From Eledone cirrhosa (Eukaryota): a stretch of DNA of 64,000 nt. Position numbers and translations under genes: made by a program. The DNA is taken from assembly GCA_964016885.1 (NCBI GenBank), contig OZ024743.1, positions 187,674,001 to 187,738,000 on the forward strand, written 5' to 3'. Below the pieces are notes generated by a model. The model ran no database searches. It had not been told where the DNA came from and saw only the letters and a program-made list of their open reading frames with translations. This document shows positions 4,528 to 50,229 of this stretch, piece after piece. How positions within the stretch are numbered: position 1 is the stretch's first letter; each line of letters opens with the position of its first letter.

Positions 4528-4612
4528 GTTTTTGTGATAAACAATTTCCCGGCAATGTAGGTAAATCCTATCGGCATTGTAGGTAAATCCTATCGTCAAC
4601 GCCCATAAACTC

Positions 4613-6039: not shown

Positions 6040-8015
6040 ATGAGATTAACTATTCAACCAAAAACATACTGCCACCTACCAACATCTCTTACACCAAAAT
6101 GCTTCTCAAAAAATTATATTTTGTATATATATTGAGGTAGAAGGCTCTTAATTCAATTAAGTCTTAGCCCCATTTGAAGCTGGTCTGTTAGATATAATTG
6201 TGACCATAAAGTTTCATTAGTACCTTCCAGCATATAGTTGTAAAGGACATTAAAAATTCAAATCCACTAAGAATGTTCTTTTTATTTTCGGTCAAAACAA
6301 AAATTTCTATCAAATGGATAAAGAAATATATACAACCTTATACTTAATAACATACCCAATAAATAATAAAAAGCTAAACCTAACACCTATTATAAGATTA
6401 ATGATGAGGTCAAAGGTATTGCCATAAATTTCTAAATAGACAATAGAGTTGAATGTTTCGCAGAACGTGATACATTCATTACCCTGAAGGATCACAAACC
6501 CGATTTTACTAACATGCCTACCTGTAGGCTAATAAATCCTGCAAGGACAGAGTTAGGACTAACTAGTAAACATTTTTTAAGAGGCATCAAAACCTGTATT
6601 ATTAAAAACACCAATCTCTCATTGTGGAATAAAGTATTGTCATATCCTGGTTCACAGAAATCCCCTTTAAGAACAAGATCAAATTCACACAGTTTGATAT
6701 CATAGATTTTTATCCCTCTATTTCTAGGACACTTTTGAATAACACCTTAGACTCTGCTCGTTCTTTTGTATATATCAGTGTCATGGAATATGACCTTATA
6801 TTCCATGCCCATAGAACCCTCCTATTTAGTAATTGTATTACTTTGGTAAATAAAATCTGATCCTGATGATTCTTTTAATGTCTCCATGGGGTCCTATGAT
6901 GGTGCTGATGTTTGTAATCTTATCGGCTTATACATTCTTCACACCATAAAGTCTAAATTCTCCAACCACTCCTTTGGTCTATACCGTGATGATGGTCTTA
7001 CTTTTTCACATGACTGTAATGGACAGACTGTGAACAGATTCCATAAAAATTTAATTGACACCTTTCATGCACTAGGACTTAAAATTACGGTTGATACAAA
7101 TCTTACTAATGCAAATTTCCTTGCTGTAAACTTCGACCTAACCACAGCTTCATATAAACCACACCATGAACCTAAGGAAAAATTGAAATATATTAATAAA
7201 GCCTCATTCCATCCCCAGCTGTTTAAAAAAACCAACTAATTTCTAATATTAGTCATAGGATCACAAATCTATCAGCAACTAGGATGATTTTTGTTAAGGC
7301 TGTTTCTTACTACAACCAAGCCCTCATAGATAGTGGTTTTAAGGAAAAGAATTAAGTATACATCCAATCATCCCAACCCAACCATATTAAAAATGCTAAC
7401 AGAAAAAGAAGAATTATCTGGTTCACACCCCACTTTTCCCTTAAAGTAAAGACTAATGTAGGTAAGATATCTTTAAGATTTAATAGATAAACATTTCTCA
7501 CCACAACATAGATATAGTAAAATATTCCATCAAGATATTTTATTCATATGGATCGTCTATCCGATCAAAAATTACTGCAAAGTATAAATCTGATGTTAAT
7601 CCAATATGCTCTCGTAGGATTAAAGAGAACTTCCATCTCCAACAGAAATATCAAATCTGTTATGTATAACGCAGTGATAACACACCGTTTTACATGCATC
7701 TCACTCCTTACAATAATTGTTTCTACTTTAGGCACAAGGCCAGCAATTACCCAGTGCATTACTGGTACTTTATTTTATCGACCCCGTAAGGATGAAAGGC
7801 AAAGTCAACCTCGGCGGGATTTGAACTCAGATCGTAAAGGGACGTAACTATGCTGGAAAGCATGGCGTCCGACCCTCCACCGATACTGCCAATGGTTGCA
7901 AGAGATGTTATCTCTGTCTTACTGAGAAATTTAGAATATTACAAGGTTTGTCATCTCTGAATAATAATTATTTGAGCTCAAAGAGCGAAATGCTTAAAGG
8001 AGGCCTCCATCTCTA
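6040..8015 (+). pseudogene. PLE reverse transcriptase + GIY-YIG endonuclease, frameshifted, interrupted by a SINE and a deletion
   Basis: ORFs 6514-6705 and 6886-7239 (YRDD catalytic motif) are pieces of one RT; CxLCLxEK GIY-YIG tail at about 7903-7930. Confidence 0.85.
7712..7893 (-). mobile_element. tRNA-headed SINE family A (central GCCTTTCATCCTTACGGGGTCGATAAAATAAAGTACCAG, Meta-domain-like)
   Basis: B-box GAGTTCAAATCCC; near-identical copies at 46738, 50580, 56705, 58831, 63152 and 63349. Confidence 0.88.
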
Positions 8016-9359
8016 AACACAACTACTTGCTAAGTGGAAATTCTCAACAAATTTCACTGATTTTTCAACCAAATTAATTTGATTTGAATACTTTCGTTAT
8101 ATCTTTTCTTTCTCTTTCCACACTTACATAATGCAACACACATTCTATACTACTCAATTCCATAACGTAATAAATATTACCATCTCTATATTACATTCCA
8201 ACACATATCACAAAACTTCTGCTACAACATACAAACACTAACATGTGAACCATCTCGCTTTTTAAATTTACATCTTTGAGTTATTTCCTTTTGTTATAAT
8301 ACATGTTTTCGTATACTGGCATTTGTGGCATGCATTACTTTTAACTATAGCTTATAAACTCGTATAAGCACCTGAAGATAGGTCACACTTTTCCTGCCTT
8401 TTGTATTCTGGAGCTGTGGTCATTATCATCATTACAATTTATCATGTTATTAGTTATTTTTCTTGTATAGTTAGAGTGATATCTGTTATGCAACATTGCA
8501 GGAGTGTAAAATTATCTAATAGATGGTAGTAAGTAGGTTTAATTACCAGGCATTACATATCTATTACATATTTAGAATGTTGTTATTAATTTTCTTTATA
8601 TAGACGGAATATAATTTGATATTAAATTTGAAGGTGTGGAAATGTTTTTAAGAAACAGTAGCAGGCACAGACAAGGAGTTAGCATTTTACATACAAAATT
8701 AATATATAAAAATACATAAACATATGGTTAGATAAAACATAGAAGCATTCGAAAATTTATTTAATTTATTAGAAAATTTCTGTTTCACTAATAAACAGGT
8801 GCTGATTTAATTTACAGTATCATTCTTTTAGTCAAATTGTCCATGTTACCAAGTAAGAAACTATTGTAAGTATTAATGACTCTAATTAAGTTGGACTTAT
8901 CAATCAAATCATCTATTAGATTTACAAAATGAATTAATTGAATGTTTGAAATATTTTTATTCAGAAATATAGTGAACCAATGATTTTCTCATTGGGAACC
9001 AGAAATAAATGATGCTACTGTATACCAAATGCAATATAAAATAAATAAATAAGTACTAAGGTCAATTTAATTGATTATAGGCTCCTCCCAATTTTGTCTC
9101 ATTATACCTATAATAGTAAAATCAGTTGCCTAAATACCAGTAATAATTTTTAATTTGGGAACAAGGATCATATTTTCAAAGAGAGGTCTGCAGTCATTAG
9201 AATTTCCTTATTTCATCAACAAATTAATATAAAAATGAAACCTTATAAGATTTTGAAATCAGAAATGAGAAGCACAATACAATATCCTACTATGTTAAGA
9301 CATATCTACCACTGCATTTGGCTATCTATAATTTGTAGCAATCAACAATACCAATGACA

Positions 9360-29450: not shown

Positions 29451-29854
29451 GTCAGTTGCTATAAATGATAGCTTAGAAGATTGAGTAAAATACCCGCTAT
29501 TGACAGAAAAAATGGCCAGCATCTTCTATGAAAAATAAAAATCCATACCCCTCATATAAATATAAACACATATCATCATTGTAATAATTAATGAACAATT
29601 TTGAGGAATTTACTAAGATGATTAAATATTTCATTACCAAGATAATATGATTCTGATATGAAATTATGGTGGGAAATTTTTATTTAAATTGGAAATCTTT
29701 AAAATAGATAATTTTCTTTCAAAGAGCCAGTATCAGTCCTTACTACTTTGGGATCAAAATGTGGGTGTGTAAATATATATATATATATATATGGTCCTAC
29801 CCATGTTAGCGTGGAAGATGGACGCTAAACAATGATGATGGTGATATATATATA

Positions 29855-30590
29855 TAAATGTAAGTATGTATACGTACATACATATATGTATACAGACGTA
29901 CAATAGTATGTATATATATACATACATGCACACATATATATATGTACGTATGGGTTTACCGAACATTTATTATAATGTTCGGTTTGTTTGTAAACAAACT
30001 GCCCGAATTATGCCGTACAGTGTTCGGCAACCATTGTCGCCCTTTTGTTCAACACTGACAAAGGAACGATGAACTAGTTTCAAGCTTATTAGCTATCATC
30101 AGCATCATATATCTTCCTGTTAGATTATTGAACGTTGGAAAGTATATACTTTCCTTATGCATATTAACGGCTGAGCAGCCTAATTTGCATATCGAGTGAG
30201 TTAGTCGGCCCGGCGTTCTGAAAACGATAAATGGAAAAGAATGAAATGAAATTTCATTTCTCACTCTTAGTACGGCTGATACTTAAATGTAAGTATGTAT
30301 ACGTACATACATATATGTATACAGACGTACAGTAGTGTGTATATACATGCACATATATTGCTGAACACTGTACGGCTTAATTTGGGCTGTTTGTTTACAA
30401 ACAAACCGAACATTATAATAAATGTTCAGTAAACCCATACGTACATATATATATGTGTGCATGTATGTATATATATACATACTACTGTACGTCTGTATAC
30501 ATATATGTATGTACGCATACATACTTACATTTAAGTATTAGCCGTACTAAGAGTGAGAAATGAAATTTCTTTTCATTCTTTTTCATTTAT
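29855..30590. mobile_element. HHR-bearing tandem/fold-back element, family H4 copy 1 (429-bp unit)
   Basis: Unit start repeats at 29855 and 30284; inversion at about 30358; HHR on minus at 30068-30106. Confidence 0.85.
30068..30106 (-). ncRNA. Minimal type I hammerhead ribozyme (GUU triplet)
   Basis: GAUG CUGAUGA U AGCU AAUA AGCU U GAAA CUAG UU CAUC. Confidence 0.82.
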
Positions 30591-30596
30591 ATATAT

Positions 30597-30651
30597 ATGT
30601 AAGTATGTATGTATACGTACATACATATATGTATACAGACGTACAGTAGCA

Positions 30652-30713
<62 letters not shown>

Positions 30714-31268
30714 TATACACATATGCATACAGGTACACATACATATATGCACGCATCAGTTTAGCCGACGTTTATTATAACGCCTGCTTTGTTCGTTTGT
30801 TTGTCAACAAATCAAACAGCCTGAATTTATGCCATACGGTGTTAAGGCAACCACGTCACCTTTTTGTTCAACACTGACACAGGAACGATGTACTAGTTTC
30901 AAGCTTGTTAGCTATCATCAGCACCGTTTACCCATCTGCCAGATAGTTGAACGTTCGAAAGTATATACTTTCCTTATGAAAATTAACGGCTGAGCAGCCT
31001 AATTTGCATATTGAGTGAGTTAAATCGGTCAGGCATACCGAAAACGATAAGTTGAAAAAAATGAAAACGAAAAACAAGCTTGAAACTAGTACATCGTTCC
31101 TGTGTCAGTGTTGAACAAAAAGGTGACGTGGTTGCCTTAACACCGTATGGCATAAATTCAGGCTGTTCGATTTGTTGACAAACAAACGAACAAAGCAGGC
31201 GTTATAATAAACGTCGGCTAAACTGATGCATGTATATATGTATGTGTACCTGTATGCATATGTGTATA

Positions 31269-31342
<74 letters not shown>

Positions 31343-31458
31343 TGCTACTGTACGTCTGTATACATATATGTATGTACGTATACATACATACTTACATTTA
31401 AGTAAGTGCCATACTAAGAGTGAGAAATGAAATTTCGTTTTTATTTTTTTCAACTTAT
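30597..31458. mobile_element. HHR-bearing fold-back element, family H4 copy 2 (different subfamily)
   Basis: 30597-30909 is inverted with about 31073-31398; HHR on minus at 30884-30928. Confidence 0.85.
30884..30928 (-). ncRNA. Minimal type I hammerhead ribozyme, intact core (GUA triplet)
   Basis: AACGGUG CUGAUGA U AGCU AACA AGCU U GAAA CUAG UA CAUCGUU: 7-bp stem I, 4-bp stem II, palindromic CUAG stem III. Confidence 0.88.
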
Positions 31459-31969
31459 ATATATATGCATACCGTCTAACCCATGCTAGCGTGTAAGATA
31501 GACATTAAATGATGATGATGATGATGATACATATATACTCATGCACACACACACACACACATATATATATAATAGCAATATAGCAAATGGAAGAATGAAA
31601 CACAGGATGAATGAACAAAAGCATATACCTTCCTCATCAACCATACATTTTGTGCATAATATCATGTCCACAATTGTCCAAACAAGTCACTGGGAATAAG
31701 CATATGAGACAAAACAACAACATAAAGCTAGACCAAAATAATAGAGAGTAACTTTCAACTGGATCTATGATGTAACTAGATCATAAACAACTAATAATTA
31801 ATACATAACAAGAGACAAAAAATGTAACTTGTGCAAACTGTAATGCAGGAAGGGAAGAAATATTTGTAGTGAGTTATCTAAATGGATACATGTGTAGGTA
31901 AAAGAGTTGATAAAATATTTCTTGTCTCTTTCAAATTGTCTCAATAAGTGAAAAACTAATTATATACAA

Positions 31970-32348
31970 GCTGACATTGCCCAATTGCACCTCTGAAAGG
32001 CGATGACACAGAACCGACACCTCTGGCATTATGCAGTAATACAGACGACCCGACTTCCAACGGGTACAAGCCAAAGCTGAAACATATAGACAGTATGCCT
32101 TCACCCGGCCTCCCACAACAAAAAAGCACCCAGTCCACAGTAATGTGGTCATGTAGTCGCCATGGTAAAAAAGCGACCAGTATTTAGGTTGGTGTTAGAA
32201 AAGGCATCCAGCTGTAGAAATCAAGCCAAAATCGGTTCTGTATGAGCAAGACATGGTCACCTGACCTCGCATTACGTACAACAGGACAACCCATCTAACC
32301 CATGCTATCATGGAAGAATGGACGTAAAACAGTGATGATGATGATGAT
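31970..32348 (+). mobile_element. RTE LINE 3' end
   Basis: Homologous to 15050-15460; (GAT)n tail. Confidence 0.85.
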
Positions 32349-32349
32349 A

Positions 32350-32690
32350 CATATTTTCCTTTTCTTCCCCCACATATTCCTGGGTGCGTCGTGGGTGCAG
32401 AGTTCTCAGACATACATTCCAGAGGGTCCTATCAGAAGCAATCATCTCCAGTTGATCCAGCTGGATCCCTAAGGGAGACCAACGAAGTTCATGGATGTTA
32501 TCCAAACACCCACTTCTGGTCTGACTCTGCATCTCCTGCTAGTTGACTTTGTCTGTAAAATCTGTCCAGCGAATCTTTCCCTAGACATTCTAACCACTTA
32601 TCAATAGAATCAGAGCTGTGATCTCTCACTTAAGAGAAGTAGTCATTCTATCTGTAGTGACTCCCTGATCTCTGAGGATGTGTAATGTTA
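32350..32690 (-). mobile_element. Rex3/Expander-like RTE 3' fragment
   Basis: LDNIHELRWSPLGIQLDQLEMIASDR; homologous to 61705-62000. Confidence 0.7.
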
Positions 32691-33865
32691 GTGTGCATGA
32701 ATGTCATAGCATAAGTGAACTGAGAAAACAACCTGGCATAAAAAGAATTGGTTGGAGTTAGCAAGAGAGAAGATTGCATTCATATAGACATGTGATGCAT
32801 ATGGAAGATAGCAGCTACATAAAAAAGCAGAGAAATTCCAGTAGCTGGAACCCATAGAAGAGGCAGACCCAGGAAAACTTGGGATGATGTATAGAAGGCT
32901 GACCTTAAGAAACTAAGTCTCACAACTGAGTTGATAAAGGATGGCACTATGATGTAATGAAAAAACCTGGTCACAAGCATACAATGTGACTTCTGACCAA
33001 TCCCTTTTTCATCCCCTCCCCCCACTCATAACCCCTCAAGTACCACTCCTTAGCTAATCTCCCCTTCTGAAGCCCTTGGATACCCTCACTATTGCACCCT
33101 AATAGCTACTCTCTTTACCAGCTGTGCACCCTCTCCCCTACCACCACTCAGATATTTCTCCATCACTACACTCCCCATCTTCATGCCGTATTCGCCACAG
33201 CATTCACACCCACCACATTATTACATCCCCTCACCCTATATATTATCAGTCACTCCTTCCATCCCTTACTCATCACCCGGCTAAATCACCACTCTAACCA
33301 TACACCTATAAATTCATACCCATCTCCCTACCCTATCACTCCCACAAACCCCACAAAGTAGAGAGAGTTCTTTAGTTGTGACTATGACCAACAACCTCTC
33401 TAGTGACAGTGCTCTGACAATTCACCCAGTACACCTGTAAGTTGATTGGCAAGAGGAAACCATGCTTAGAAGGGTTCAGAGGACCCCCAATCATGTCAAT
33501 GGCACTACAACCTCTCTAGTTTTTGTGGTCTTCACAATAAATATACCCAGAACATGCTGTAAAGTGTTTGGTGAAAGGAAAGGCATCTAGCTGTAGAAAA
33601 CTTTCCAAACAAAAGGTTGTAAAGACTCTCCATTTGTGTCAAGGACATGACAACCTCCCTAAGTCTTGGTGATCTATGCAATAAATGAACCCAGTGCATG
33701 TTGTAAAATTCACTTGGAAGAATGCAAAACTGTATGTAAGTGAGATGTGCATCTCCAGCCTGCCTGGGAGGTCAGTAGCCTTGCATCAGTACTGACTTGG
33801 TCTATGGAGACCTAACCAACTTTTACTAGCAGGGAAAGTTTAGGTTAGATGATGTTGACAATGAT
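32690..33865 (+). mobile_element. Old RTE LINE 3' part with long 3' UTR
   Basis: [29 protein letters not shown]; repeated caacctctctag units. Confidence 0.7.
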
Positions 33866-34239
33866 TATATAGAGTTAGATATAGGGCACAACATTCTGAA
33901 AAGTTTGTTAAGAATGGCCAACTGTTGCTCATGAAGCAAGAATTTTCTCTCTCCTCCATCGCCAGATTTAATACAGCTTATCGTCCGTACAATCACAAGG
34001 AAGCTCAGAACTTAAAGGGCTGAAGCAATTACCATAATTCATTGTTTAACACTTTAACAATTCCCTCAATCCACCACTTTTGATTGCTACCTCATTTAAT
34101 TGACTCCAGGAAAGATGACAGAGAAAGTTGACTGCAATGGAATTAGAACTCGAAATTTAAAAAAGCCAGAACAATATCTGTAAACAGCTTGCTGGACACT
34201 CACAATTTTACCAGTTCTTCACTTAACATACACACACAA

Positions 34240-34270
<31 letters not shown>

Positions 34271-35464
34271 CACACATACATATTTAGATACATACACTTA
34301 TGAACACATCTGTACACTGAGATATGATTGGAGGGAATTGTTTGAATGTACACTCATGTCCAGGGGGCCACACAGTTTTTTTTATTTTGATGTAGACTTT
34401 ATATCTATTCTGAAAAATCGATTGTGGGAATATATTTTTAGATAGGACTATTTGGTAAAACTAAAAGTATTGAAAAATGTTTTATTTGTTATTTACATCT
34501 TATTAATTCCCAAGTGGCATTAGACATCCTGTTTTGCTATAATTAGCAACAGCTGTTTACTTTCATCTTCTTCTATATCTCTTTTCTTGCTACTAAATTT
34601 CTCATGCAGTATTTCCTCCACTCCTGACACATTCTGTTTGATATTTTGACTTCTTATAATCTGTGTCACTTTTTAAGTTAGACTGGTGAAGAATTTTCTT
34701 GCAAAGATATTTATTCAAAGAGGTTGAACTAACAATACTTTCAGAAATCTCAAAACAAATTTATTAAATCCCACCTTGATTGCAAGGTAACACTACTCAG
34801 AAAGTGCTTCACGCATTCTTTCAGCAAGTAGATGGGGAATACTCTGTGTACTCTCTTGATCTGCTAGATATTTCAGCCAAATTTCTATCAAATCACACAC
34901 TACACCATTTTAAAATAGGAAGCACAATAACAATCTTCAACTTAGACAACATACCTGTGGTGTTCATCTATCTCTCATCTCATTGAGGAGAAATCTCCTG
35001 TCAAACTATTATGTTACAGTGTAAATGGATGGGAATATTTCTGAGATACATTGGGATATTCCACAGTTCTGTTAATTTTAACCCACACTTCCTACAGTGG
35101 ATCAACACTTCCTTCTAACTTAAACTTTCACACACTATATATTCCGCATTTGTCCTGCACTGCTCTTATGAAAAATGTCTTTAAAAATATCCGACAATGC
35201 AGCACAAAGAGAAAACTGCTACACATATCAAAGAAATAGTCATGCACATCACCCTTCATATACATAAACAACACATATTTGAAACTTTAGAATTCTTAAA
35301 ACTTTAAAACCATACAAAATGGTTTGCCTCACAGTGTCTGATGATATTGCATAATGATCTTACATATAACAGGAAAAATGCATTCTGAAAACTAGCTTTC
35401 TTATTAGGTACATAAATACTTAATCTCTGATCAGTTGATTACTTCTAAAAGTCTAAAGTTTGTC

Positions 35465-35718
35465 TTAAGTCAGAAGGCTCATTTGGCTGGTGCTTATGCC
35501 GGTTTCATGGTGTGAGGCAACTGAGAGTACAAGACTCCCCCCAGGACAGGGAACCAGCCCAGGGTTAAACCTCCAGATATTGCTGGTACTCATTTTCAGC
35601 TGAGTATACTGGAGCAATGTGAAATGAAGTGTTTTGCTCCAGAACATATGCAACCCAGGAATCAAACCCACAAAATTATGATCGTAACACCCTTACCACT
35701 AGGCCATGTGCCTCCACT
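35465..35718 (-). mobile_element. tRNA-headed CORE-like SINE
   Basis: Minus strand ggaggcacatggcctagtggtaag...gtttgattccct...agcaaaacacttcatttcacattgctccag; similar copy at 60050-60252. Confidence 0.8.
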
Positions 35719-35779
35719 GATTACTTCTACAAAATTCAAATATGACCTATACTGAGATACTGTTCACATCGGTTCTGAC

Positions 35780-36070
35780 AATGAGTGTTCCATTTGCTTG
35801 ACCAATGGAAAAGTCTGAAACAACTGTCCAGTTGGTTAAGCATTTCACAGACATGTAAACCCATTACATGATTCTTAGGGAGATTTAGTGTGACACATTG
35901 AGTGACAAAGCTGGCTCTTTGGATTACAGATACAGCTAGATTTTGCCAACTGAGTGAACTGGAACAATCTGAAATAAGTGTCTTGCTGAAGGACACAATG
36001 CATCACTGGGAATCGAACTCATAACCTTGTGACCTTGAGTCAAACACCTTAACCATTAAGCCATACCATT
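35780..36070 (-). mobile_element. tRNA-headed CORE-like SINE
   Basis: Minus strand tggcttaatgg...gagttcgattccc...ccttcagcaagacactt. Confidence 0.78.
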
Positions 36071-36957
36071 GATTCTTCTAGTACTACAACTATAATGGCC
36101 TCTGTTTTCTCTGCTAATAAGTTCTGTACCACACTGGTAGTAATTAACTTTGTTCTATCATTCCTCCTTCTCTGAGCTGCAAACCTCTGAAATTTTCAAA
36201 CTGACCACAAGCTGCTACTCAACCATGTTCATCTCATCAGTCTAGGAGAGCCTATAATGGATACAAATTAGCACCAGTTTCCTCAGATTTGGGTTTCTAT
36301 CCTATTTAATCAGGTAATCTACTACTACTGTCAGTTTACTGCTATCTTCCATTGCAAATAGATTAAACAATTAGTGTATGGGATCAATATAAGTATACAA
36401 TTTTTATCATGGCACCAAAAAGTCTGCATAACCTTGAAAAGACTGACTGAAACTTTGCAACAATAGCAATAAAATGAATAAAAATGTGTCTGAACCCACA
36501 AAAACACTTATGTTTTAGAGATTGTGATGATAGTGCTGATTGAAAAGCTGGTAATGGTGGTAAAAGGAAAAAGAGGTGTATATCATCATATGGTTTTAGT
36601 GTTAATTAATTGTAACAAATAACATTAGCACTCTTGTCTGTTGTACAGAGTTCTAGGTAATTCTTTTCTTTTTGCATGAATAGAAACTGCAGTAATTAAC
36701 TTATTAGATAAATGGGATACTAACAATTTAATGCCCAACCTTGAATGTTTCATTGAAAACATAGGTTATCTAACATTTATATTATATTGTTGAATAGCTC
36801 TGTGATACAATCCTTTTAGTCATTCCTGGCTGGTACTTTCAATACCTGATACATAATTCGATTACATTAAACCTATCCTCTATTTATGATTTTGTTAAAA
36901 GCTTATGCTTTCACTATTCAATATATACTTCTATTTGTGAGATGTTTTCTCCATAAA

Positions 36958-37018
<61 letters not shown>

Positions 37019-37136
37019 CATATATATAATCATTGTCTTCATCAACATTATTAGTATATTAGTGTGTAGTATTATTGACAGTAATGATAATAAGAATAGT
37101 TGTTGTTCCCATCATCGTCTTTATTATTATTATTAA

Positions 37137-37174
<38 letters not shown>

Positions 37175-37681
37175 TGATATACTTCTTCAAAATAGTTATG
37201 GAGGAATCTATTTTGGTTTATATACATACTTCCTCAATATATAAATTAAATGAATGTAAGCTCTCTTCTCATTGCTATTCAATAAATACAGATACATATA
37301 TGATGCATAGGTGACCAAAAAAAAAAAAGGAGAGGAGATTGTATAGAGCCTTTGTTGCTGACATTGTTTAGAGTTGATTAACTGGATTAAAGTGGTTTAG
37401 CATCATCACTGAAACCATCACAATCTTGATCATGATAACGGGCACTATCATCATCATGATATTTTCTTTTCAATTATTCCTTTATCTGCTATTTCTGACA
37501 CACACACACGCACACACATATATATATATATATAATATGTATATAAATATATATATACATACATATTGCAAGCAGGGAAGAGCGGACGTAAAATGATGAT
37601 GATGATATATATACATATATGTATGTATATAAATATATATATATATATATACATACATATCAACATTCCTCTCTCTCGCTT

Positions 37682-37726
<45 letters not shown>

Positions 37727-39199
37727 CCACCCATATACCCAGAAGGTGGAAAGGGATGTATATGTGTGTAATCATGTCCATTCATTTATATTATATAAAT
37801 AAATGTATAAAAACACACAGATGTTTATATATATACATACCACATACATATGTATTTATATCAGTTGTAAAAGCTATACAAGCAAGACACAAACAATTTT
37901 GGGGAAGCGTGTGCTTATGCAATTAATGAGTTATCAAGCTGTGCATTGAGATTACATGTCATCAGGTAATAAATCCTACATCTATTGAAAGTATCGGCCA
38001 TTTTTATAATGAGAGAATATAACATTGTATAGATTATTAATATCTCTAAAATACTTAAAAGGTTTAGCAAACATGATTGTAAAATCAAAGTTCCTTATTT
38101 CAAAGATAAGATATTATCACATTATCGGTATTATGGTGTAAATTATTTAGATTATTACACATCATTACTTGTGTCTTTATTGTTTTCCATCATACAGAGA
38201 GCTTTTATGATCACCATAATTTTCATCAACATCATTTTTATCATACAAATCTCATGACAACAGTTGCCACCACTGCAAACAACACACAAGCTGCTACAGT
38301 TTTATATTATTAACAACTGTTATCCTTAACCTGTTTATTATTTCCCAAATTATTAGATTTGAGAGAACTCTTTAGTCTGGCCATGCATGTGACAATCTCT
38401 CTAATGTTGATGCTATGATAAAATGCAATATAACTTGTAAAGTGTTAGTGTTGGTGCAACAATAATACGCCCAGTACACTCTGTAAGGTGTTTGGCATAA
38501 AAAAAACAAATACGAAAAGTCTGAGCAAGATGAGGCTGTTCAAACCTGTCTAACCCAAGCCAGCATGGAATACAGGCGTAAAGTGATGATGCTGATGATG
38601 GTGAGGATGATCCTTATTGATATTTATGTGGACTATAGTGAATTTAGGTAATATCTTGTCTAAATTGCATCTTTGCTAGTATGAAATTTGGAACCTCAAT
38701 AGCTGCTACTCTTTGATGTTCTGGGTGACATTCAGCATGAACTATATGCAGAGTGACCATTGAGAAATTCTAATACGATGGCTATTAATAGTGGAAAGAT
38801 AATACCAAATAAACAGCTACTATTTGCCTGAAACTCTATGAGACACCTGGATTTGCCTGGCAGCTAAATTATCATCTGTGAATCAAATTGTAGAAGAAAC
38901 TGTAAACATTGTTCAAAATGATAGGGCAACAGAATAGTAGAATTGTTTGAGCATTGGAAGAAATGCTTTGAACCAATTTAATCGACTTCCCCTTTCCACA
39001 AATTGTTAACCTTTTGCTTAAATTGGAAATAATACGCTGGTGGATTGGCCAAATCATTAGGGTGTTGGATAAAATGAATCTTATTGAAGTCAAGTTTGCC
39101 TTTCATCCCTCTGGGGTTGATAAAATAAGTACTGGGTATATATAATCAATTTTCCTTTCTCCCCGAATTGCTGGCCTTGTGCATATATAATTATTGAAA

Positions 39200-40745
39200 A
39201 CATTTATTCCAAAACTATGGCCAAATCTCTGGCAAAAGACTGGTGTCTCTTTTCAATGTCACAGAGAGCATATGCACCACTATGGTTTCACACATTCTTT
39301 TTTCTCAATGGCATTCTGTTTCATACAGACTGCTTTGAAATTTGGAAAGTTTCATCCATTTAATTTTCATAATGTCAAGCATAAGAGAATTTCCTACTGT
39401 CAATTTCTCTTCTGGCTTCATCGATCTGATGCCTTACTTTCTAGCTAGCATGTTTGATATTGCTCTTTCTTACCTGCATTTATTTACACTTCTCTCATTC
39501 TTCTCAACTAGCTATGATATGCTACAGGATTCTTAGCAGTCTTTCTACTCCATCCACATTGATTTATTATAGGAGGTATAACTCTTCATCAGACGAGGAT
39601 CAGATGTTCTCAACCATAAGCCTGTCTTGATTTTTGATTATTAGAAATTCAATTTGGCTCTTACGTCCATCATAGATGTAGGCAGTTACTTGGTTGGCTG
39701 ACTTTCTACAGTGTGCTGCAAAGGATCTTGATGATCTTCCCCATAGAACTCCAGCATCCAGAATCCATAATCCTAATTCATTTACTCAATGATGTACTGA
39801 AAATGTAGACAAAGGGAGAATGGGGTAAAAGTTCATGGTGCTGTTATCTTTACTGGCAACAAAGAACGTCTCTCTTAGAGTGAAGAACAGATTATATAAT
39901 GCCTGTGTACAAACTTTTATGCTACAAAGCAGCAAGACATAGACTGTGAGTACTGACGATTTGCAATAGTTGGGTATATAATGGTTGCTTTGCTGGATAT
40001 GCAATATTTTCTTTGCTGTGTAATATTTGCTGGATGTGTAATATTTGCTGTGTAATATTTGCTGGATGTGTAATATTTGCTTTTTGGGGGGTGAAATGTT
40101 AAAGAAAATGGATTTGGGAGCACAAATGAAATGAGAAAAAACTCTAAATATAGGAATATAAGACATATACGATTTCACTGATATGGACATGTGATATGTA
40201 AGAAAATTGAGTGTTATATAAAAAGGTGCTGAGCACTTGAAGTAGATAGAATGTGTGGAAGAGAGAAATCAAGGAATACATGGAAAAAAGTCATGAATTA
40301 TGAGCTCAGAAATGAGAAAAGATTAAGTTGATTGATAACATACTGTATTAGATATGACTAGGGCTGCAGCACTAACATTACACGTGATGAGACTACATTG
40401 ATTGGTTGGGTAACCTTTAGCCAGTATTAGATGAAACAAGCTCTCTAGTATTGCTAAAAAGATTGAACACACTAAGTATCTCATTAAAATGGAGGACATA
40501 CACAACAATACAATGTGGAGCAGCAGGTGCACTTTTGTCTTGTCAAGAATTTGACAACTTTGTTAGTATTGGTGCCACAATAAAATGCACCCAGTAGACA
40601 CTATAAAGTGATTGGCATTAGGAAGAGCATCTTGCCCTAAATTTATGCCACAATGTGAAATATATTTTTGCTTGGATTCTGATGAGCCATCCAACCTATG
40701 CCAGCATGGAAAGCAGATATAAAATACCAAATGATGGTGATGATA
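39200..40745. mobile_element. Very old RTE fragments (endonuclease remnant on minus 39200-39790; RT and 3' end on plus 39800-40745)
   Basis: TAYIYDGRKSQIEFLI remnant; KF..LLSLLATK.VSLRVK.RLYNACV; RTE-type tail with (GAT)n. Confidence 0.6.
40012..40080. repeat. Minisatellite of alternating 14- and 18-bp units (tgtgtaatatttgc[tgga])
   Basis: Four units directly visible. Confidence 0.85.
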
Positions 40746-41739
40746 GTCTTCCTGCACACAGGTGAAGCTGTCCTAGTGTTTCTGGATATGACTAGAAGAA
40801 TGCAAAATTATGATGCTAATAATAATTTTATCAATTTCTTCAGATGTGCACAAAGACCTGAGAAAGTCAATTGTTTTGCTCATCTGTCAGTCCCACTCTA
40901 AGTGAATTAACATATAATCTTACAATAGCTATACTACACCCAGTTTAAATATTCTAGCACCTATTCTGACCCTTACAAGTATTTCATCTTACCACTTTGG
41001 TGCTAAGAATGTAAGTAGGACATTTACATTTGAATTGCTACCACCTCATAATGTAAATATCATTTGAACATATACATGCAATAGGGCCAATTTCGTAATT
41101 TTCCTGCTCAGCGACATCCATTAAAGTGTTATAATATATTTTTCTTGAAAGTATATAAGCAAATTCCAGCATGGAAGTTAATTGTGCTAACATGAGTTAA
41201 TCCCCCCCCCCCCCATCCTGTTGGTAAATGCTTCAGCAACAAATTGGTACTCTGTAGCAAAATGAGACTGGAATACCAGTGAAAAAAAAACTACCTAGAT
41301 GTAACTGAACAACCTTTTCAGAGCAGATATGTACAATACCTTTATTTTTTCAACATCCAAAGGGAAAAGGACACCACTTCCCTCACACAAGACATTTAGT
41401 TAGTAGCAAATGGATGTGGAAATAATAAATTTCACGATATTGTGATCTGTGATAGGATTAAATAAACTGTAATCTGGAGTATCTAAACCATACTTAGCAG
41501 ACCTGTTCTGCTAGAGAAGCAGATGCAGGTGGTGGATAGCAATACAATCACCAAATATGATGTTTAACTGCAATATAAATGCGCTTCTGCAGGACAAATA
41601 AATAACCATAGACCAAATAGTGGAAAACTACTAGGGGAGTGGGAGCAATGGGTGACACAAAATACTGTAGCTCAGCAATAAAGTTGTGACAAGCCAAGTA
41701 AAAGATGCCTCTAAAAATGCATAGTCTTTGCAAGTCTGA

Positions 41740-42340
41740 GAAAATTACCAAATTTATGACTGGCTTGAATATGACCACCAAAAACTGCAGTATGGTCAGA
41801 TTCAATAAAAGTAATCATACCACGTTGTCCTTCATGTGGAGTAAGAAGGAATGCATTCAGGCCTTTGGTAGAGGAGCCTGTTTTAAAAAAATTTTGCTAT
41901 CTAATTCTAAAGGTGTTTTCAGGAGTGATGGAAGAATTAAATGTAAGAATTGTTGGAACTTATGTAGTAATGCATCAGATACAGCACTCAATCATCTGAA
42001 GGGAGGTAAGTGTAAAAGCCAAAATCACTATATTTAATTCAGTGTTTGTATCTACACTTACTTATGGTCATGAATCTTGGGTAATAACCAAAGGAATATA
42101 TTGATTGCAATTACAAGCAACTGAAATAGGGCTCATTTGAAGGGTCTTTGCTCAAAAGGGTGCATAACTTGGAGATCACAGAGTTGTCTTAGAGAAACTA
42201 CTTTTCTGAATTAAGAGATCACAGCTCTATTAAGATTGACATGACCTGGATTAGTCCTATCAGAAACAACCATTTGGAGATGGTTGTTTCTGATAGGACT
42301 CTCTGGAAAGCATGTCTGAGAACTCTGCTCCCATGACCCT
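41740..42340 (+). mobile_element. Rex3/Expander-like RTE fragment, decayed
   Basis: SVFVSTLTYGHESWVITK...LQLQATEIG; homologous to 61900-62330. Confidence 0.65.
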
Positions 42341-43384
42341 CTCCCAGAAAGAAATGAGCAAACATGAAAAAATAATCTGGAGGATCTTAAAAGCACCAAT
42401 GGGGAATTTTTCATATTAATTTCCTCAATCAACTTTTTTAATGGAAGGACTAACTTGTCTCAAAATATCATTCTCCAAATAAATTCATTTGAGAAACTTT
42501 GTACTAACTACAGGTTGAATAAACTATAAGAATTAACCTTGATGGTTAAATTTCTTTGAAATTCTTTTATTCCTTTTAGATTTCTTTGAAAATCTACATT
42601 TGAGGTAAAATCACCTCTCGTAGTTAAATATTTTTCCAAATATTCCACGCAAGACTAAAAAGTTCAATAAACTCTTGCTATCTCTATTATTGGAAACAAG
42701 AATTGTTTTGCCTATTGTATATCTATCTGAAACACACCTCTTTCGTTTCAAATGATCCCACATTCCCTTCTTTTCTTTTGCTTTTCACTTATGCAATTTT
42801 ATTACAATGTTCTCAATTTTCATCTTAATTATCTATTTAATGCTCTATCAGTTTCAACATCCTTTCTTTACATGCAAACTATTGACATTAGATCCGATGC
42901 TACCCACTTGTGAAAATGTTAGCCTTCCACTTGTATAGAAACAATAACTTTCTCCTTCACAACCTCTTTAATTTTGTCTATTTCTTCGCTTGTTTTCAAA
43001 CTACTTTTTTTTCCTCTCTGTTCGTTTTTCTCTCTCCCTCTCTATTTTTTCTTCCACTTAATTTCCTCTTTCTTTTTTGCTAACATTAAATCTTTTTCAG
43101 TTCCATCTCTCCTTGATCTTTTCTTTACCTTTTTCTATGTCTCATTTTTTTGTGTGCATTTAGTATAGAACGTGTACCATATTATGCATATTTTTAATGG
43201 TACCGTCAAACTTGTCCAAGAGCTTGATGACTCAGTCACAAATTTGATTTCTCTTACAATCTGGGGAGATAGTTGAAATTGGGCCTTGAAACCTTAGGTA
43301 CCACTTTTATTTTGTGTATGTACATAAATAAGTGACATATATATAAATACACACACACACATACATATATATATATTGTATGTA

Positions 43385-43508
43385 GTTGACAGACGAGAGA
43401 AAAGAGTGCTCAATACCAAAGTAGAGTTTTTATAGCCATACATTATAGCTAAATAGTGAGTGTTATTACTCTGGAGTTTCACCTGTGCACTCAGAGGGTT
43501 ATCAGACA
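43385..43508 (-). mobile_element. PLE-pLTR-like element with HHR (family H1)
   Basis: Minus strand UGU CUGAUAA CCCU..AGG U GAAA CUC CA GAG UA AUA, then tail ctactttggtattgagcac...tctgtcaac matching 11876-11917. Confidence 0.8.
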
Positions 43509-44187
43509 TATATATACTACAGGCTTCCATACAATTTCCATCTATCAATTTCATGTACAAGGCATTGGTCAATGTGAAGCTATAGAAGGAGACACTTCCT
43601 CAAGGAATCACACAGAAGAACTGAACCTGAAAATGTATAATTTAAAAGTGATGCATAGATGTATTTATAAATGTCTATACATATATTATATATGTATATT
43701 ATATATGATACCTTTCCTCGCTCATAATCACATATATTAAGAATCCATCGTATTGAAAAATAGACAAATTATTTCCAGCAAAACAACATTGGTGCTTTGT
43801 AATTAATCTTAACTGATGGAACTAATTTCTTCTAATCTCTTCAAATAATCTTAATGACAGTGTCTTTGCTACTGAAATTGGCATCACATTGTTTGTAAGA
43901 GTTTCTAATATACTGGCTGTTTTTGATCTTCTAATCTATTTTCTGATAATCTATTTATTCATTATTTATTTATGTGCTTATATGCTTATTTACATCATTA
44001 TTTATTTCTATTTATTCTCTATAACATTTCTGTATTACATTTCCAACACACCAATCACTGATTCACAGCATTTACCATCTTGGGTGAAACAATATCACAC
44101 AATTCTAAAGCGCCAGTTTATTTGCTTTCTAGGTGATATTTACATCTTTGCCTGATATACATCAATAATATATATATATATATATTA

Positions 44188-44553
44188 TAAAATAAGGCGG
44201 CCGACTGGGGTAGAAGCTGCTAAATGTTCGGTCGCCCTCTTGTCTCTGATTTTCAGCCCTATGGATTTTGTCTATTATATTCCTTTGTTATATTTCGAAT
44301 ACCTGATGATGTCACCGGATTCATACTGAACCCGGTCATTGAAATGATCATAGTATAATAAACCTTTTAAGGAATTACACCAGTCCAGCTTCCTGTTATT
44401 TATAATAATTAACTCCGCACTTGCACCACCAACTACACAAACAAAGACAGGTGAGTTGCGTTACGCTGAGTGCTCTCCATAATATTACATCGAGGTTGAC
44501 CATACGGAATGACCAGTTCTATCCAGTGGTGAACCAACAAACCTAAATAAATA
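44188..44553 (+). mobile_element. Solo PLE-pLTR-like element in (TA)n with HHR, AATAAA and splice-donor consensus (family H5)
   Basis: (TA)n on both sides; HHR at 44299-44356; AATAAA at 44357; AG|GTGAGT at 44449-44456. Confidence 0.8.
44299..44356 (+). ncRNA. Type I hammerhead ribozyme with palindromic stem III
   Basis: AUAC CUGAUGA [UGUC ACCGG AUUCA UAC UGAAC CCGGU CAUU] GAAA UGAUCA UA GUAU. Confidence 0.83.
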
Positions 44554-44573
44554 TTATATATATATATATATAT

Positions 44574-45612
44574 AGGAAAAGAGTCAGGACCCCGACGGCT
44601 GAGCTTCGGCCGTTTCGACAGCTAGGTCTGAACTAACGCGGTATTGTTAGTACAGCATTAGCCTCATCTTCAAATCCCCTCACGATCGTGTGGTTAGACC
44701 TCGGCTGTAACATCTTTTCCTATTTGCCGACTAAGATAGAGGAAACCCCAGCATAATTAGGTAGAAGTAAAAATTATTTTTCTTTCTTCTTTTTTCTTAC
44801 TTTCTTCCCCTCTCTCTCCTCTTACTTTTCTTGTTTTCTTCATTAGTCGCACACTCCTTTACACTTAGGCGGCCCATCGCTTATATTCAACTTCATTCTT
44901 CCTTAGATTAATCCTAGTATTTCCACTCCTGTTATATCTACATAGCACTGGCTGAAAATATAGCCAGTGTTTTCTCTTTTTGTGGGAGTGCATCATTACA
45001 GACAATATTATTGATAAATTACCATTATGAGATGATGTTCTAGTGTTTTGGACGACCTAATAACTAAATTTTATTAATTTGCATTTTGGTATTAAATTAT
45101 ATTTGCCTTGCTTCCTGGCCAATTATTAATTCTATGATTTCTTTGTTTATCATAGGTTCCCAGCCCCCTTTAGAGATAGCTGTATAGAATTTCCTCTTAA
45201 TGCATGACTGGCCTGCAACCACAGGTCAGATTGTCATCTTACTCCCTCCCCTTGTTCTACAGGCAAGTTCAGCCACGCCCACCCCCACCTGCCAATATGA
45301 AGGAATTTAACTGCTTTTACAAAATCTTTGACCACTCCCCGTGATTGAAAAACAACTTTGAGAACTGTTTGACACAACACTACAGCACAGTGACACTTTC
45401 ATTGCATGCTCATATATGGAATTATCCCTTGATAAGTTCAGCCAGGCTATTGCTGTACTAACAATACCATGTTAGTTCAGACCTAGCTGTCGAAACGGCC
45501 GAAGCTCAGCCGTTGGGGTCCTGGCTCTTTTCCTATTACCCACTCTACTACCCAGTATCGAGTACTTTGGTACATTATGGTCCTCCTGGTTACTTACCAC
45601 ACTTCCATTGTT
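44574..45612 (+). mobile_element. PLE-like non-autonomous element with inverted partial pLTR and HHR (family H2)
   Basis: 44574-44664 is inverted with 45444-45534. HHR-like UUGAUAA...GCUGUC GAAA CGGCCGA AGC UCAGCCG U(C/U) GGGG at 45424-45520. Unpaired tail to 45612; (TA)n flanks. Confidence 0.82.
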
Positions 45613-46737
45613 ATATATATATATATATATATATTAGAAAGTGAGGTTTTTTTTACAAATTGAAAAATAACCGAGGTGTCCTACATGAGTGAAAGTATAA
45701 AGAAAAAGAGATGAAATTGAAAATGCAACTGGAGTCTTATTTTTTTTTTAAATATATATATTTATTTGGTTCCTTTACCGGTTTCGCAGTTCTTCTGCTT
45801 TTCAAAAGCAGAGTTGAGATGGAGGGTCTGTGTGTGTATGTATGTGTGATTATGATGATACAGTACAATAGTCAAAGTGAGACTGGGGCTTTGTGTGCAG
45901 AGGACTTATGAAATTTGGAAAGAAATGAGGCAAGTATTCCTGGTCTCTGTGCTCTAAGTTCAAATCCTGCCAAGGTCAACTTTGCTGTTCATCCTTTTGA
46001 GGATAATAAAAGAAATATCACTTCAGTATTGGGCCAGATGTGTCCTCTATTTCTCAATTCTTATCTCTCAGTCCCTCATCATCTCTGGAAAATATCAGCA
46101 TGGGCTCTACCAGGTTTTAAATGCTTAAGAGATGCTGTAAATCACAATGACACCCCTCTGACCCCATCAGTATTTATAAACACATTCAGAGGATGATGGT
46201 TAGTTCCTATTACCTTTTTCAGAGACTCCATGACTGATAGGTGACATAGAGAAAGCTATTTTCAGGCAAGAGACTTTATTAGAATAATTGCAACAAAGCT
46301 AATTTCTTCTAGAGACATACAAGGGTTAGTTGATGAAGTCAAAGCAGGAGACAAATTAAGTGTTATACTCCATAACAGGAAAGTTAAGATTTATGCAATG
46401 GGATTGCTCGGAATTTCCATCTACTTGCAAGATTTTGTTTAAGCTTGTGCAGCTCTTACCACCAATGTTTTAATCTTTATATTATGTAGAAGTAGTATAT
46501 TATTGGGCCTAAGAGGTATCTGCCCAGATATAAACCGAGACTGAGTTCTTCAAAGTTAGTTAAGAGAAAAATTAATGGCATAGACATCAGAATAAAAATA
46601 TGAAAGCAAATTATTAATCTTAATGATGACAGTGAGAGAACAATAATGATTGACAGTGATGTCTATGTATCTGTATATTATTGGTTAGCCCATCCTATAC
46701 CACAGGGCTGTTACAGGACATCATCATCATCATTATC

Positions 46738-46922
46738 GATTGGCAGTATCGGTAGAGGGTCAGACGCCATGCTTTGACGCATAGAGTTATGGCCCTTGCC
46801 ATTCTGAGTTCAAATCCCGTTGAGGTTAACTTTACCTTTCATGCTTACAGGGTCGCTAAAATAAAGTACCAGTAATACACTGGGTAATTGCTGGCCGTGT
46901 GCCAAAAGTAGAAACAATTATT
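46738..46922 (+). mobile_element. SINE family A
   Basis: Same head, centre and tail as 7712-7893. Confidence 0.88.
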
Positions 46923-48814
46923 TTATGTCCGCTTTTCCCTGCTTGCAAAGGTGGGACAGGTCTTCTTCTCTCCATTCATCACGGCCCCTTGTCATTTCCT
47001 CGGTGATCTTCAGCATTCTGAGGTCAGCTCTCACCACCTCCGCCCATGTTTTTCTATAATATAAACATAATATATCAGATATATCAGAGCATTTCATAGG
47101 TCTGGCACATTACATATGCTAATTTTTGTCTATTCAGAAACTTTGTTATACACCTCCAGAGTAAAGAAGAAGCTATAGAACTACTATTTTGCACTAGAGG
47201 GATGAAAAAGACATTACGTTATTTAGAAGTCTTGGGGGAAAATACACAGTGTCTGCATGAAAACTGAATGGTACGAAGATCAGTTTTAACATATTTAATA
47301 AAGTGAAACTAGGAATTTTAATTCATTAGAATTACACCTATAATGTAAAATTTTAGTTATCTTAATGATCAATTCTGTTAAAGAAAGACAGGGAAAACAA
47401 ACCCCAAATTTTAATTAATTAAAAGTAGAATGTGATGAATAAGTTTGATTGCAACATTACAATGACAACTCAAATAATTATTAGAATCCTCCATAAATCA
47501 TAGTTTTTAACAAAGATGACTTAAGTAACTCTATGCTTGCACAGTATAGCAATATATTTTCCACAAATATCTTTCTATAATCTTGAAAATAGGAATTACA
47601 GGGATGAAGACTAAAGTAGTTGCATATTTGTGATAAAAACAATGCTACATTCATAATCGCATAAATACCATTTTTCCTGCTATCTAGGTAGTAATATGGC
47701 TGCAGTGTTAGAGTAATAGACAAAATGCATTGCAATATTTATTCTAGTTCATTGTATTCTGTGTTAAAATCCTACAAAAGTCAATAAAATACAAGTCTAG
47801 GGCAGTAATTGAATTTAGACTGGTGGAATTATTGGAACATCAGACTTGTAGTATTTGTTCCATCTCTTTGCATTTTGAGTTTAAATCTGGCTGTAGCCTT
47901 TTTAGGTGGTACACTTAATCCACCACTCAGTTTAACAGTATAACTTGATCCTTGGGTGTCCTTAAAACGTCCACTCTGTTACAAGCCTTTTATCCAGGTC
48001 TCTAATTTGAATATAATTTTTCTCCCTCTCTCCTAGTCATGTAGGCTCTGTAAAGAATCATGGGCACTGCTCTTCTCCCTTACTAAGTGATAAAAAGGGA
48101 AAGAATAAATTTAAACCCTATTGTAGAATATTCATTCCTAACTACAAGAGAATCTACGAATCTACTACAATCCAATACAATCTTATAAAACCGCACATTT
48201 TACCTTTTAGTTTTTGAGCCACATAAGTAGGATGTGCATTGATGTATGTTTTGTAATTGAGCAATATAGTTTATATATAAACAATAAACTTTCCAACAAT
48301 GGTTTATAATTATTTGTGTTTTAATGATATTTAACAAATATATGAATAATTGAAGTAAATATTGATAAAACTAAACAAATATTGAATTTGTATTATTTTT
48401 TCTGCAGAAAGATTTATTTCCCTACAGAGATGGGTAATTAAATTCCACTTCTCAAGGTTTCAGTTAATGAATATATTCAATCATATTTTTCTCTTATTCT
48501 CTCTTGAAACAGTACATCACACATAACACTTTAGCAATTAAATTAATGGTTCTGTAGATGAGCAGAGATAATGCTTGGTTTCTGATCTAATAGACAAAAT
48601 TCAACTTTTGGAATAGTGTTGTGTCATAACTGTTTCACTAACACAGGCTATAGAGAGTTATATGCTGACTGAATTCAAAGAGTATGAAGAATCTCTTAGT
48701 GTATGTAGTTTCAATTATTTACATTCTGAAGTCAAATTCTGCCTTAATTAACTTTGTTTTGTATTCCTTCTCCAATTTGCTAAATTTATTACTTGTAATA
48801 GGTGGCAAATTAAC

Positions 48815-48955
48815 AGAGTCAATAGAATGTTGGATAGAATGCTTTGTGGTGTTTGTTCCAGCTCTCTATTCTCTGAGTTCAAATCGCACTGGGATCAACT
48901 TTACCTTTCATCCATTTCAGGACAATAAAATAGTTCCAGTTTAGTACTCTGGTCA
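48815..48955 (+). mobile_element. SINE family A-related, diverged
   Basis: gagttcaaatc...aactttacctttcatccatttcagg..aataaaatagttccag. Confidence 0.7.
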
Positions 48956-49344
48956 ATTCTTCCTCTATATATCTTTCTCACAGCCTTTCTCCCACACTCT
49001 ATTCTTCTCTGGAAGAAATCTGCTGTATTCAGACCTGGAGAAGAAATGGGCTCTGCCAGGTTTAAATATGCCCTGGAAACACTCTTGGCATTCTGAGTTC
49101 AAATTCTACCAGGGTTTCTATGGTCAAGATTAATCACTGAACTATGAGAACATTCCATACATCAGACAGCATAAACAGATAGGCTTCAGAGGAGAAACAA
49201 AAATTATATGTCAACAGTAGAGTACTGAATATTCCTTCAGAAGTGGAAGAAATCTGCTGAAAGGAAAATATATTTGGATTCAATTGCGTTTGTTATATTT
49301 CTATGCAAAATTTTAATGAAAACAATTTCAGCATAAAGTCATTC

Positions 49345-50185
49345 GGTAATAGAGGTGTATATGAAGGAATATACAATACATTTATGTGTAATAAATATAT
49401 AAGACTCTTGCTCTGATCGATCGACAAGATCCCAGACCTCATTTGCATGCTGAGTGGGGTGGACCTCATCGAATCAGACCAAGAAAACAATGTTTCCATT
49501 GGTCTTTCCATTGCTGATACTATCTACCAGTCGCAACTCCTGGCAGAAAGAGCAATGTGAAATAAAGTGTCTTGCTCAAGGATACAATACATCAACCGGT
49601 CTGAGAATTTAACTCACAACCTCAGGATTGCAAATCCAACTCTCTAACCACTAAGCCACATACCTTTACCTTTACTATGAATATATTAAGCTGTGAACAA
49701 GTTAAAGCTGTTTGAGAATGTCAGACATGTATTTCTTATCTTTTCTCCATCATCCGTACTTAGTACTGAGATAAGAATAAGCAATAGCTTATAAGTTTGT
49801 TTTACACATAAAACATAAAATGGAGATGCTCATTTGCATATAGTGTGAACTTGACCAGCAGGGATAGGGTAACAGTAGCTCTAACTTTCTATGGTTCATA
49901 ATAGGGGTGTATATAAAGGCATATAAAATGTGTTTATGTATAATAAACATACAAGAGTCTTGCAATGAATATATTAAATTCTAATAACATCACAGCCATA
50001 GAACCATGTGAGAATATCGAACACAGGTTTTGGTAATCTTATCCATCATCAGTGGCAATTACTCACTGAGTATTGAGACAAGAATAAGCTATAGCTTATA
50101 TACTTTTTTGCGTATGAAACTGGAGATGCTCATTTACATATAGTGTGAACTTGACCAGCAAAGATAAGTTAACAGTAGCACCAAC
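49345..50185 (-). repeat. Old 300-bp tandem unit with octamer, palindrome and degenerate HHR (family H6), interrupted by a SINE
   Basis: tggagatgctcattt(g/a)catatagtgtgaacttgaccagca at 49821 and 50121; 49345-49413 matches about 49896-49967; CUGAUGA on minus at 50046-50052. Confidence 0.75.
49415..49670 (-). mobile_element. tRNA-headed CORE-like SINE
   Basis: Minus strand tggcttagtgg...gagttaaattctcagaccgg...ccttgagcaagacactt. Confidence 0.8.
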
Positions 50186-50229
50186 TGACCATTTGTGTAG
50201 GAAAAATTGGTTGGATATGCTACCACTCT

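Follow-up and report, generated by a model that had tools for sequence, protein, structure and literature searches.

The window (the whole stretch of 64,000 nucleotides of Eledone cirrhosa DNA analysed here, in whose numbering all coordinates are given) contains at 29855–31458 a hammerhead-bearing repeat, H4, and at 49335–50186 a second repeat, H6, which a first-pass annotation had described as two dissimilar tandem families sharing an octamer, a TATA-containing palindrome and a hammerhead ribozyme. The H4 locus consists of two separate insertions in (TA)n in the style of Penelope-like elements (PLEs), copy a at 29855–30590 and copy b at 30594–31458, each made of a direct unit and an inverted, 5'-truncated arm whose 51–57-nt tail reaches (TA)n. 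In copy a, one full, closed 429-bp unit on the minus strand (29855–30283) comprises the tail, the octamer, the TATA, the hammerhead, a body and an AT-rich 3' end adjoining (TA)n; beside it, on the same strand, lies the 75-bp 3' end of a preceding unit (30284–30358; 92% identical to 29855–29927), which constitutes a head-to-tail junction, and then, on the plus strand, the inverted 5'-truncated arm (30358–30590; 96% identical to the direct copy), which spans the 3' end and the 57-nt tail at 30534–30590 up to (TA)n. Copy b has a minus-strand direct unit (30594–31066; 79% identical to that of a), with octamer, TATA and hammerhead present, and a plus-strand inverted arm (31073–31458; 98.7% identical over 156 nt) that begins within helix II of the hammerhead and ends in the tail at 31408–31458, the tails of both arms stopping at about equal register. 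The tandem family of the annotation was therefore not found as an array at this locus, while the head-to-tail junction is there, copy a amounting to 1.17 direct units. The closed unit has no open reading frame (ORF) of at least 120 aa, and copy a leaves no room for one; nor did we find an ORF with reverse transcriptase (RT) and GIY-YIG next to H4, either at this locus or among the loose contig ends listed. The RNA of the unit is predicted to fold at z=-8.45 relative to shuffles, to which value the AT-rich end contributes in part, and the folding analysis depicts the unit as a chain of palindromes. The locus is flanked by two ends of RTE-like long interspersed nuclear elements (29776–29856 and 31456–31537), which are abundant in the window, with many copies within 9760–59980, and have (ATC)n/(TA)n tails and 46–50-bp subrepeats.

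Words from H4 were found in 14 of 19 listed runs (10 studies, 11 organism labels), the shares being small in most. The family evidence comes from the contigs of four of those 14 runs, under four organism labels, which yielded 8,728, 4,844, 21 and 3 H4 contigs; because of these counts we regard H4 as an abundant family, depth not being equal to copy number. Loose ends behind the unit re-enter its 3' end in 65 contigs of run X1 and 112 of run X4, which is the same junction as that at the locus, and X4 in addition contains joints going back across the unit with 6–32 intervening letters. The back-going joints and these loose ends, which are those among the rows listed, thus indicate that closed, ORF-less head-to-tail units exist, and no single piece from the window or the contigs spans two consecutive H4 hammerhead cores. 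Family variants were taken from the best 40 of 130 variant rows, which supplied 38 variant places. Exact H4 and H6 words occurred 0 times in prokaryote genomes.

A structural scan of both strands of the window returned three type I hammerheads, with cores at 30102 (minus), 30921 (minus) and 44303 (plus); the Rfam models gave no hammerhead match in the window at E<=5, H4 included. The minimal hammerhead of copy a (30066–30108, minus strand; core C3 at 30102, predicted cut between 30072 and 30071) has a U·U followed by a 4-bp helix II, a palindromic helix III, ACTAGT, and a GUU site, GUA being the majority in the family, while that of copy b (30884–30928, minus strand; core 30921) has the GUA site and a 7-bp helix I. 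Between the copies the ribozyme differs at 2 of 41 positions, and helix I (6–7 bp) is maintained despite base changes. The best-supported family variants lie at tolerated places (N7, loop II, a U·G becoming C-G, and GUU becoming GUA), the GUA site being restored in 91%, 63%, 85% and 100% of depth in the four runs, and some of the listed ribozyme variants strengthen helix I. For animal hammerheads, short palindromic helices III and cleavage that depends on dimers have been described (PMC4209133), and the helix III of H4 would predict the same dependence.

All eight motifs of the two families were found where the annotation had placed them. In H4, the octamer ATGCAAAT lies on the minus strand at 30183–30190 in copy a and at 31002–31009 in copy b, within a conserved block (30138–30203), and the TATA-centred palindrome of copy a occupies 30137–30154. 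That palindrome, announced as a perfect one of 18 bp, is indeed so in copy a, but the 18-bp form is private to that copy: it measures 16 bp in copy b (30957–30972) and in most family contigs, and position 30137 has another letter in 78–100% of depth in three of the four runs. The copies differ at 4 of the 66 positions of the block as against 43 of 226 elsewhere (p=0.012), the stretch between block and ribozyme having 12 differences in 35; the block is free of all 38 listed variant places (largest-gap p=0.008), and depth peaks over it in runs X1, X4 and X6. The motifs of H4 are, accordingly, not conserved merely to the degree of the remaining unit, the block being kept better than most of it. 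Spacing from TATA to start and the initiator rules would place the start of transcription at 30118 on the minus strand, the A of a CAG, which is reached by counting 31 nt from the T that opens TATATA and which precedes C3 by 16 nt and the cut by 47 nt. That CAG is retained, within a variable stretch, in copies a and b and in the loose-end consensus of X1 and X4, and the octamer upstream of the predicted start is likewise conserved across copies, as judged from sequence conservation only. The conserved block fits a promoter whose RNA would begin some 16 nt ahead of the core, and the octamer–TATA block is likely the H4 promoter. The annotation had called this promoter internal, which term does not apply, since the block lies upstream of its own predicted start; such a promoter could be inherited only via head-to-tail units, as in the pseudo-long terminal repeats (pLTRs) of PLEs.

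H6 consists of two ORF-less head-to-tail units on the minus strand, two old copies only. Unit a (49887–50186, 300 bp) has a mismatched octamer at 50132–50139, TATATAAG at 50102–50095, a 16-bp palindrome at 50084–50099 and CTGATGA at 50052–50046, and lacks GAAA; unit b (49335–49886, about 294 bp without a 258-bp insert at 49414–49671) has the perfect octamer at 49832–49839, an imperfect palindrome at 49777–49792, a degenerate first core box with no CTGA, and GAAA...CATGTC. Each motif attributed to H6 thus exists, although no single unit has all three intact, and the hammerhead that had been claimed has no complete core in either unit. At the initiator spacing, unit b shows TCAGT, almost as far from its TATA as the CAG is in H4. 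The order octamer, TATA-containing palindrome, CTGATGA, all on the minus strand, is common to both families, as announced; the gap from octamer to core is 80 nt in H4 copy a, 80 nt in copy b and 79 nt in H6 unit a, and the approximately 40-nt spacings correspond as well, the end of the octamer lying 37.5 nt (H4) and 40.5 nt (H6) from the palindrome centre, and that centre 43.5 and 39.5 nt, respectively, from the core. The palindromes themselves share AAAGTATATA but are out of register, in that the H4 palindrome is centred on the TATA, whereas that of H6 merely begins inside it. The insert in unit b holds a part resembling a tRNA-derived short interspersed nuclear element (SINE), of which partial copies occur at 16162, 20370, 35962 and 60132, together with a further octamer at 49441; a third H6 copy considered at that position was rejected, it being this SINE-containing insert.

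The window holds two further elements with hammerheads. At 44186–44554 (plus strand) lies a single (TA)n-flanked non-coding element, the only copy in the window, with a well-formed hammerhead of the type found in the Hydra clade of PLEs (core 44303; 4-bp palindromic helix III). At 5320–8426 lies a decayed PLE with a frameshifted RT at about 6300–7700, likened by eye to Hydra-1_Obim, a short interrupting repeat at 7706–7893, 533-bp inverted repeats and a decayed hammerhead core at 8372; we rejected an assignment to Naiad in favour of the Hydra clade upon comparison with Hydra-1_Obim. This remnant gave no hit in Pfam, and in the Atlas it matched unnamed clusters only, with minorities of HTH_animal and RVT_1. 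The six H4 and H6 words that we searched in the supplement of Craig et al. 2021 (PMC8557442) matched outside any Hydra 3' end. A pattern combining octamer and hammerhead had 37 matches in the viral collection, none among well-formed hammerheads, and 52 in metagenomes, including three true hammerheads in animal-like DNA (L041, L045 and L078). The matches at L041 1286–1726, adjoining an EGF-domain exon, and L078 287–762 are short elements with a minimal hammerhead, inserted as fold-backs; at L045 1388–1636, in a contig that stops just past the ribozyme, three octamers, two of them forming an inverted pair, precede a minimal hammerhead, the nearest lying 78 nt before the core, and there is no TATA.

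From these observations we consider it rather probable that H4, an abundant head-to-tail repeat without ORFs, is copied in trans by a PLE and transcribed from the octamer–TATA block. The annotation's non-coding retroelement copied by a PLE is in keeping with H4, given its closed units without ORFs, (TA)n targets, tailed inverted arms and Hydra-type ribozyme; in H6 the hammerhead is putative and the marks of PLE insertion are absent. The helper enzyme is likely that of a Hydra-clade PLE, as is suggested by the decayed Hydra-1_Obim-like PLE in the window, a remnant that would also point to a cephalopod host. With a POU factor bound to the octamer and TBP to the TATA, RNA synthesis would start some 16 nt ahead of the core; the RNA of a head-to-tail pair would then read through the promoter of the next unit, so that the daughter copies would inherit it. 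The PLE enzyme would nick the (TA)n target, and cDNA synthesis would begin internally at the 3' end and at the tail end, which lie about 57 nt from each other, to produce both the direct unit and the inverted arm. The tail region holds another perfect palindrome of 18 bp (30243–30260), over which depth peaks at 30245–30280 and which is a candidate signal for such a start of reverse transcription. Since the cleavage site lies within the sequence of both copies, their template would have been an uncleaved multimer or a circle; circles are not required, for an uncleaved multimer would explain the copies as well, and hammerhead cleavage is described as dispensable for PLE insertion in vitro (PMC11167929).

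Several observations weigh against this reading. The palindrome is no distinguishing mark, because the hairpin-rich unit holds that second perfect 18-bp palindrome, and conservation alone fails to single out a promoter, since similar depth peaks stand at three other H4 blocks (hammerhead, tail and 3' stem). In X4 the depth peak is centred on the octamer, with the TATA palindrome on its shoulder at 16–34% of the peak, and TATATACT agrees with only six of the eight positions of what we take to be the TATA consensus. Octamers are common in the window (10 exact, 128 with at most one mismatch, including those in a Gypsy long terminal repeat (LTR) and in the SINE insert), a change at 30069 in one subgroup of X1 (47% of depth) would weaken helix I, and no coding PLE matching H4 was found. 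The layout, moreover, was not shown to be general beyond H4 and H6, because the octamer is missing at the H4 spacing from the 44303 element, which also has no TATA at that spacing, and from the Hydra remnant, and is absent from the six Hydra consensi of the PMC8557442 supplement, whose 11 exact octamers lie elsewhere (words split at line ends would escape). Among the three true metagenomic hammerheads none has a TATA, and we no longer count L041 and L078 in favour of a general layout, the octamer not being in the mirror arm or being formed at the fold-back junction; L045 is retained as a lead. As an RNA, finally, the block would form two hairpins (-19.9 and -13.7 kcal/mol), with the octamer paired in both copies.

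The hairpins lead to an alternative in which H4 would be a non-autonomous PLE transcribed by read-through, its block an RNA signal, either bound by the PLE protein or aiding the folding of the ribozyme, and its octamer and TATA incidental. We judge this alternative unlikely but deserving of attention: palindromes follow one another along the entire unit, with z as low as that given above, the tail and 3'-stem blocks are likewise conserved, other hammerhead elements are without the octamer, and the PLE protein is described as requiring RNA stem-loops for internal initiation (PMC11167929). The letters of the octamer, however, are identical in both H4 copies and in unit b of H6 despite differing pairing partners, the stem of copy b being weaker and H6 pairing differently, and the spacing from TATA to CAG or TCAGT suits a start site in both families. 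A further alternative, that the H4 copies are 5'-truncated pLTR ends belonging to a coding PLE, whose ordinary pLTR promoter the block would be, appears quite improbable to us. The closed 429-bp unit of copy a offers no room for an ORF, the X4 back-going joints and the X1 and X4 junction loose ends show ORF-less head-to-tail units, and no likeness to the repeat of the Hydra remnant was detected (107 of 300 shuffles were as good), although a coding parent may still exist; and yet most genomic minimal hammerheads are reported as truncated PLE ends (PMC4209133), PLE promoters as residing in the pLTR (PMC8557442), four of the six Hydra consensi have, by eye, TATA-like boxes 33–46 nt before the core, and the 524 loose-end rows beyond those listed would leave room for such ends.

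The standing of H6 is a separate question, in which the alternative to kinship with H4 is that of an old dimer of some other repeat, devoid of a ribozyme element, with a fortuitous octamer, TATA and CTGATGA. That the core is incomplete in both units, that the ribozyme region is the part least conserved between them (33/49, against 38/40 in the octamer block, the best kept, and 29/33 in the TATA block), and that the (TA)n flanks, inverted arm and tail are all missing at the window locus render this alternative a serious one, if somewhat short of even chances. A home-made covariance model built from seven hammerheads, H4 among them by construction, scored unit a at E=2.7, and the failure of that model is weak evidence, since the evident hammerhead at 44303 escaped it as well (E=6.2). 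Given how often the single motifs occur in the window (40 CTGAnGA, 128 octamers with no more than one mismatch and three unrelated palindromes of at least 16 bp), about 2e-4 such layouts would be expected there by chance, the motifs having been chosen after the fact, and a match of the H4 and H6 layouts by chance is thus unlikely. As regards the claim that no primary similarity between the families is evident, H4 aligns colinearly with unit a over about 250 nt, AAAGTATATA included, which alignment was matched by 2 of 300 and 1 of 300 shuffles and, eight H4 pairs having been tried, is no more than suggestive; the two H6 units, in addition, hold complementary halves of the core. We therefore think that H6 is probably a decayed distant relative of H4, distant common descent being more likely than a convergence of two dissimilar families; it is most likely an old relative carrying the same module, with a putative ribozyme. 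In an LTR retrotransposon at 1–231, 955–4653 (minus strand) and 4655–4887 (1,232-aa RT/RNase H/integrase ORF; LTRs 95% identical), a pair of CACGTG boxes encloses ATATGCAAAT in each LTR, which might be a further octamer promoter.

A broader proposal, which we put forward tentatively and regard as rather doubtful, is that a lineage of invertebrate mini-retroelements including H4, H6 and their kin replaced the ORF of a Hydra-clade PLE with a compact octamer–TATA promoter, so that the RNA would start at the hammerhead and the promoter would be inherited head to tail, a solution like that of newt satellite 2 in another phylum. If this proposal were true, such a lineage might account for the strong expression of animal retrozymes, which are reported as heavily transcribed in most tissues, although the papers that we found describe promoters for none but the newt and schistosome satellites. 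The 66-bp conserved block and its predicted start at a single base reduce the promoter question to a reporter and 5'-end experiment; if the block were an RNA signal instead, it would mark what the PLE enzyme recognises in the RNA of a parasite. The ribozyme build, the target and the tail of H4, moreover, connect a single retrozyme-like family with a single PLE clade, Hydra. New here are the H4 family, its link with that clade, and the conserved octamer–TATA block with its precise predicted start, and in the open-licence literature we found no report of an octamer or TATA promoter in retrozymes or PLEs.

Hammerheads had previously been counted in a squid genome (PMC6962438), and metazoan non-LTR retrozymes are the subject of Cervera & de la Peña 2020 (PMC7229834) and of Li, Clavereau & Pollet 2026 (bioRxiv 10.64898/2026.07.22.740005), the latter treating them as non-autonomous PLE derivatives; the available text of these two sources holds no promoter analysis. 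H4 resembles these retrozymes in its short ORF-less unit, within the published range of 51–972 bp, in its type I hammerhead with a palindromic helix III and, like axolotl HHR_Amex2 (PMC7229834), with a U·U where helix II begins, in its head-to-tail junctions, in its RNA, predicted to be strongly self-paired, and in its proposed PLE origin; it differs in its dispersed inverted PLE-type insertions in (TA)n, with no long arrays seen, and in being known from DNA only. By the criteria of sequence, H4 belongs with the non-LTR retrozymes and non-autonomous PLEs. With the Hydra-clade PLEs it shares the succession ctgatgat, 4-bp stem, tetraloop and tgaa found in many entries, together with GUU and GUA sites (Craig et al. 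2021, PMC8557442 S2), and the (TA)n target (PMC8557442 S1). Inverted 5'-truncated arms with 30–40-nt tails are described as the PLE signature (PMC8557442), the tail reflecting two internal starts of reverse transcription (PMC11167929), and H4, like the Hydra-clade elements including Hydra-1_Obim, has the inverted 5'-truncated arm plus tail, the latter being of 51–57 nt as compared with those 30–40 (PMC8557442). Unlike those PLEs, H4 has no ORF, a shorter helix III and about 218 nt past the ribozyme; and, when set against the six Hydra consensi, it alone has the octamer.

In newt satellite 2, the promoter is said to contain the octamer, and transcription reportedly starts about 47 nt before the cut. 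H4 resembles that satellite as a hammerhead repeat with its own snRNA-type promoter (in H4, a candidate one), and differs from it in having octamer and TATA within 34 nt. The newt promoter is described as one of the small nuclear RNA (snRNA) type (PMC2220036, citing Coats, Zhang & Epstein 1994), and the schistosome satellite as having an RNA polymerase III promoter (PMC2220036). In the plant LTR retrozyme NbRZ1 the terminal repeat holds the promoter (PMC9695139, PMC12029980), so that it too is a retrozyme repeat with a promoter, as H4 is a candidate to be, whereas the plant LTR retrozymes differ from H4 in their type III hammerheads and their LTR/Gypsy features (10.64898/2026.07.22.740005).

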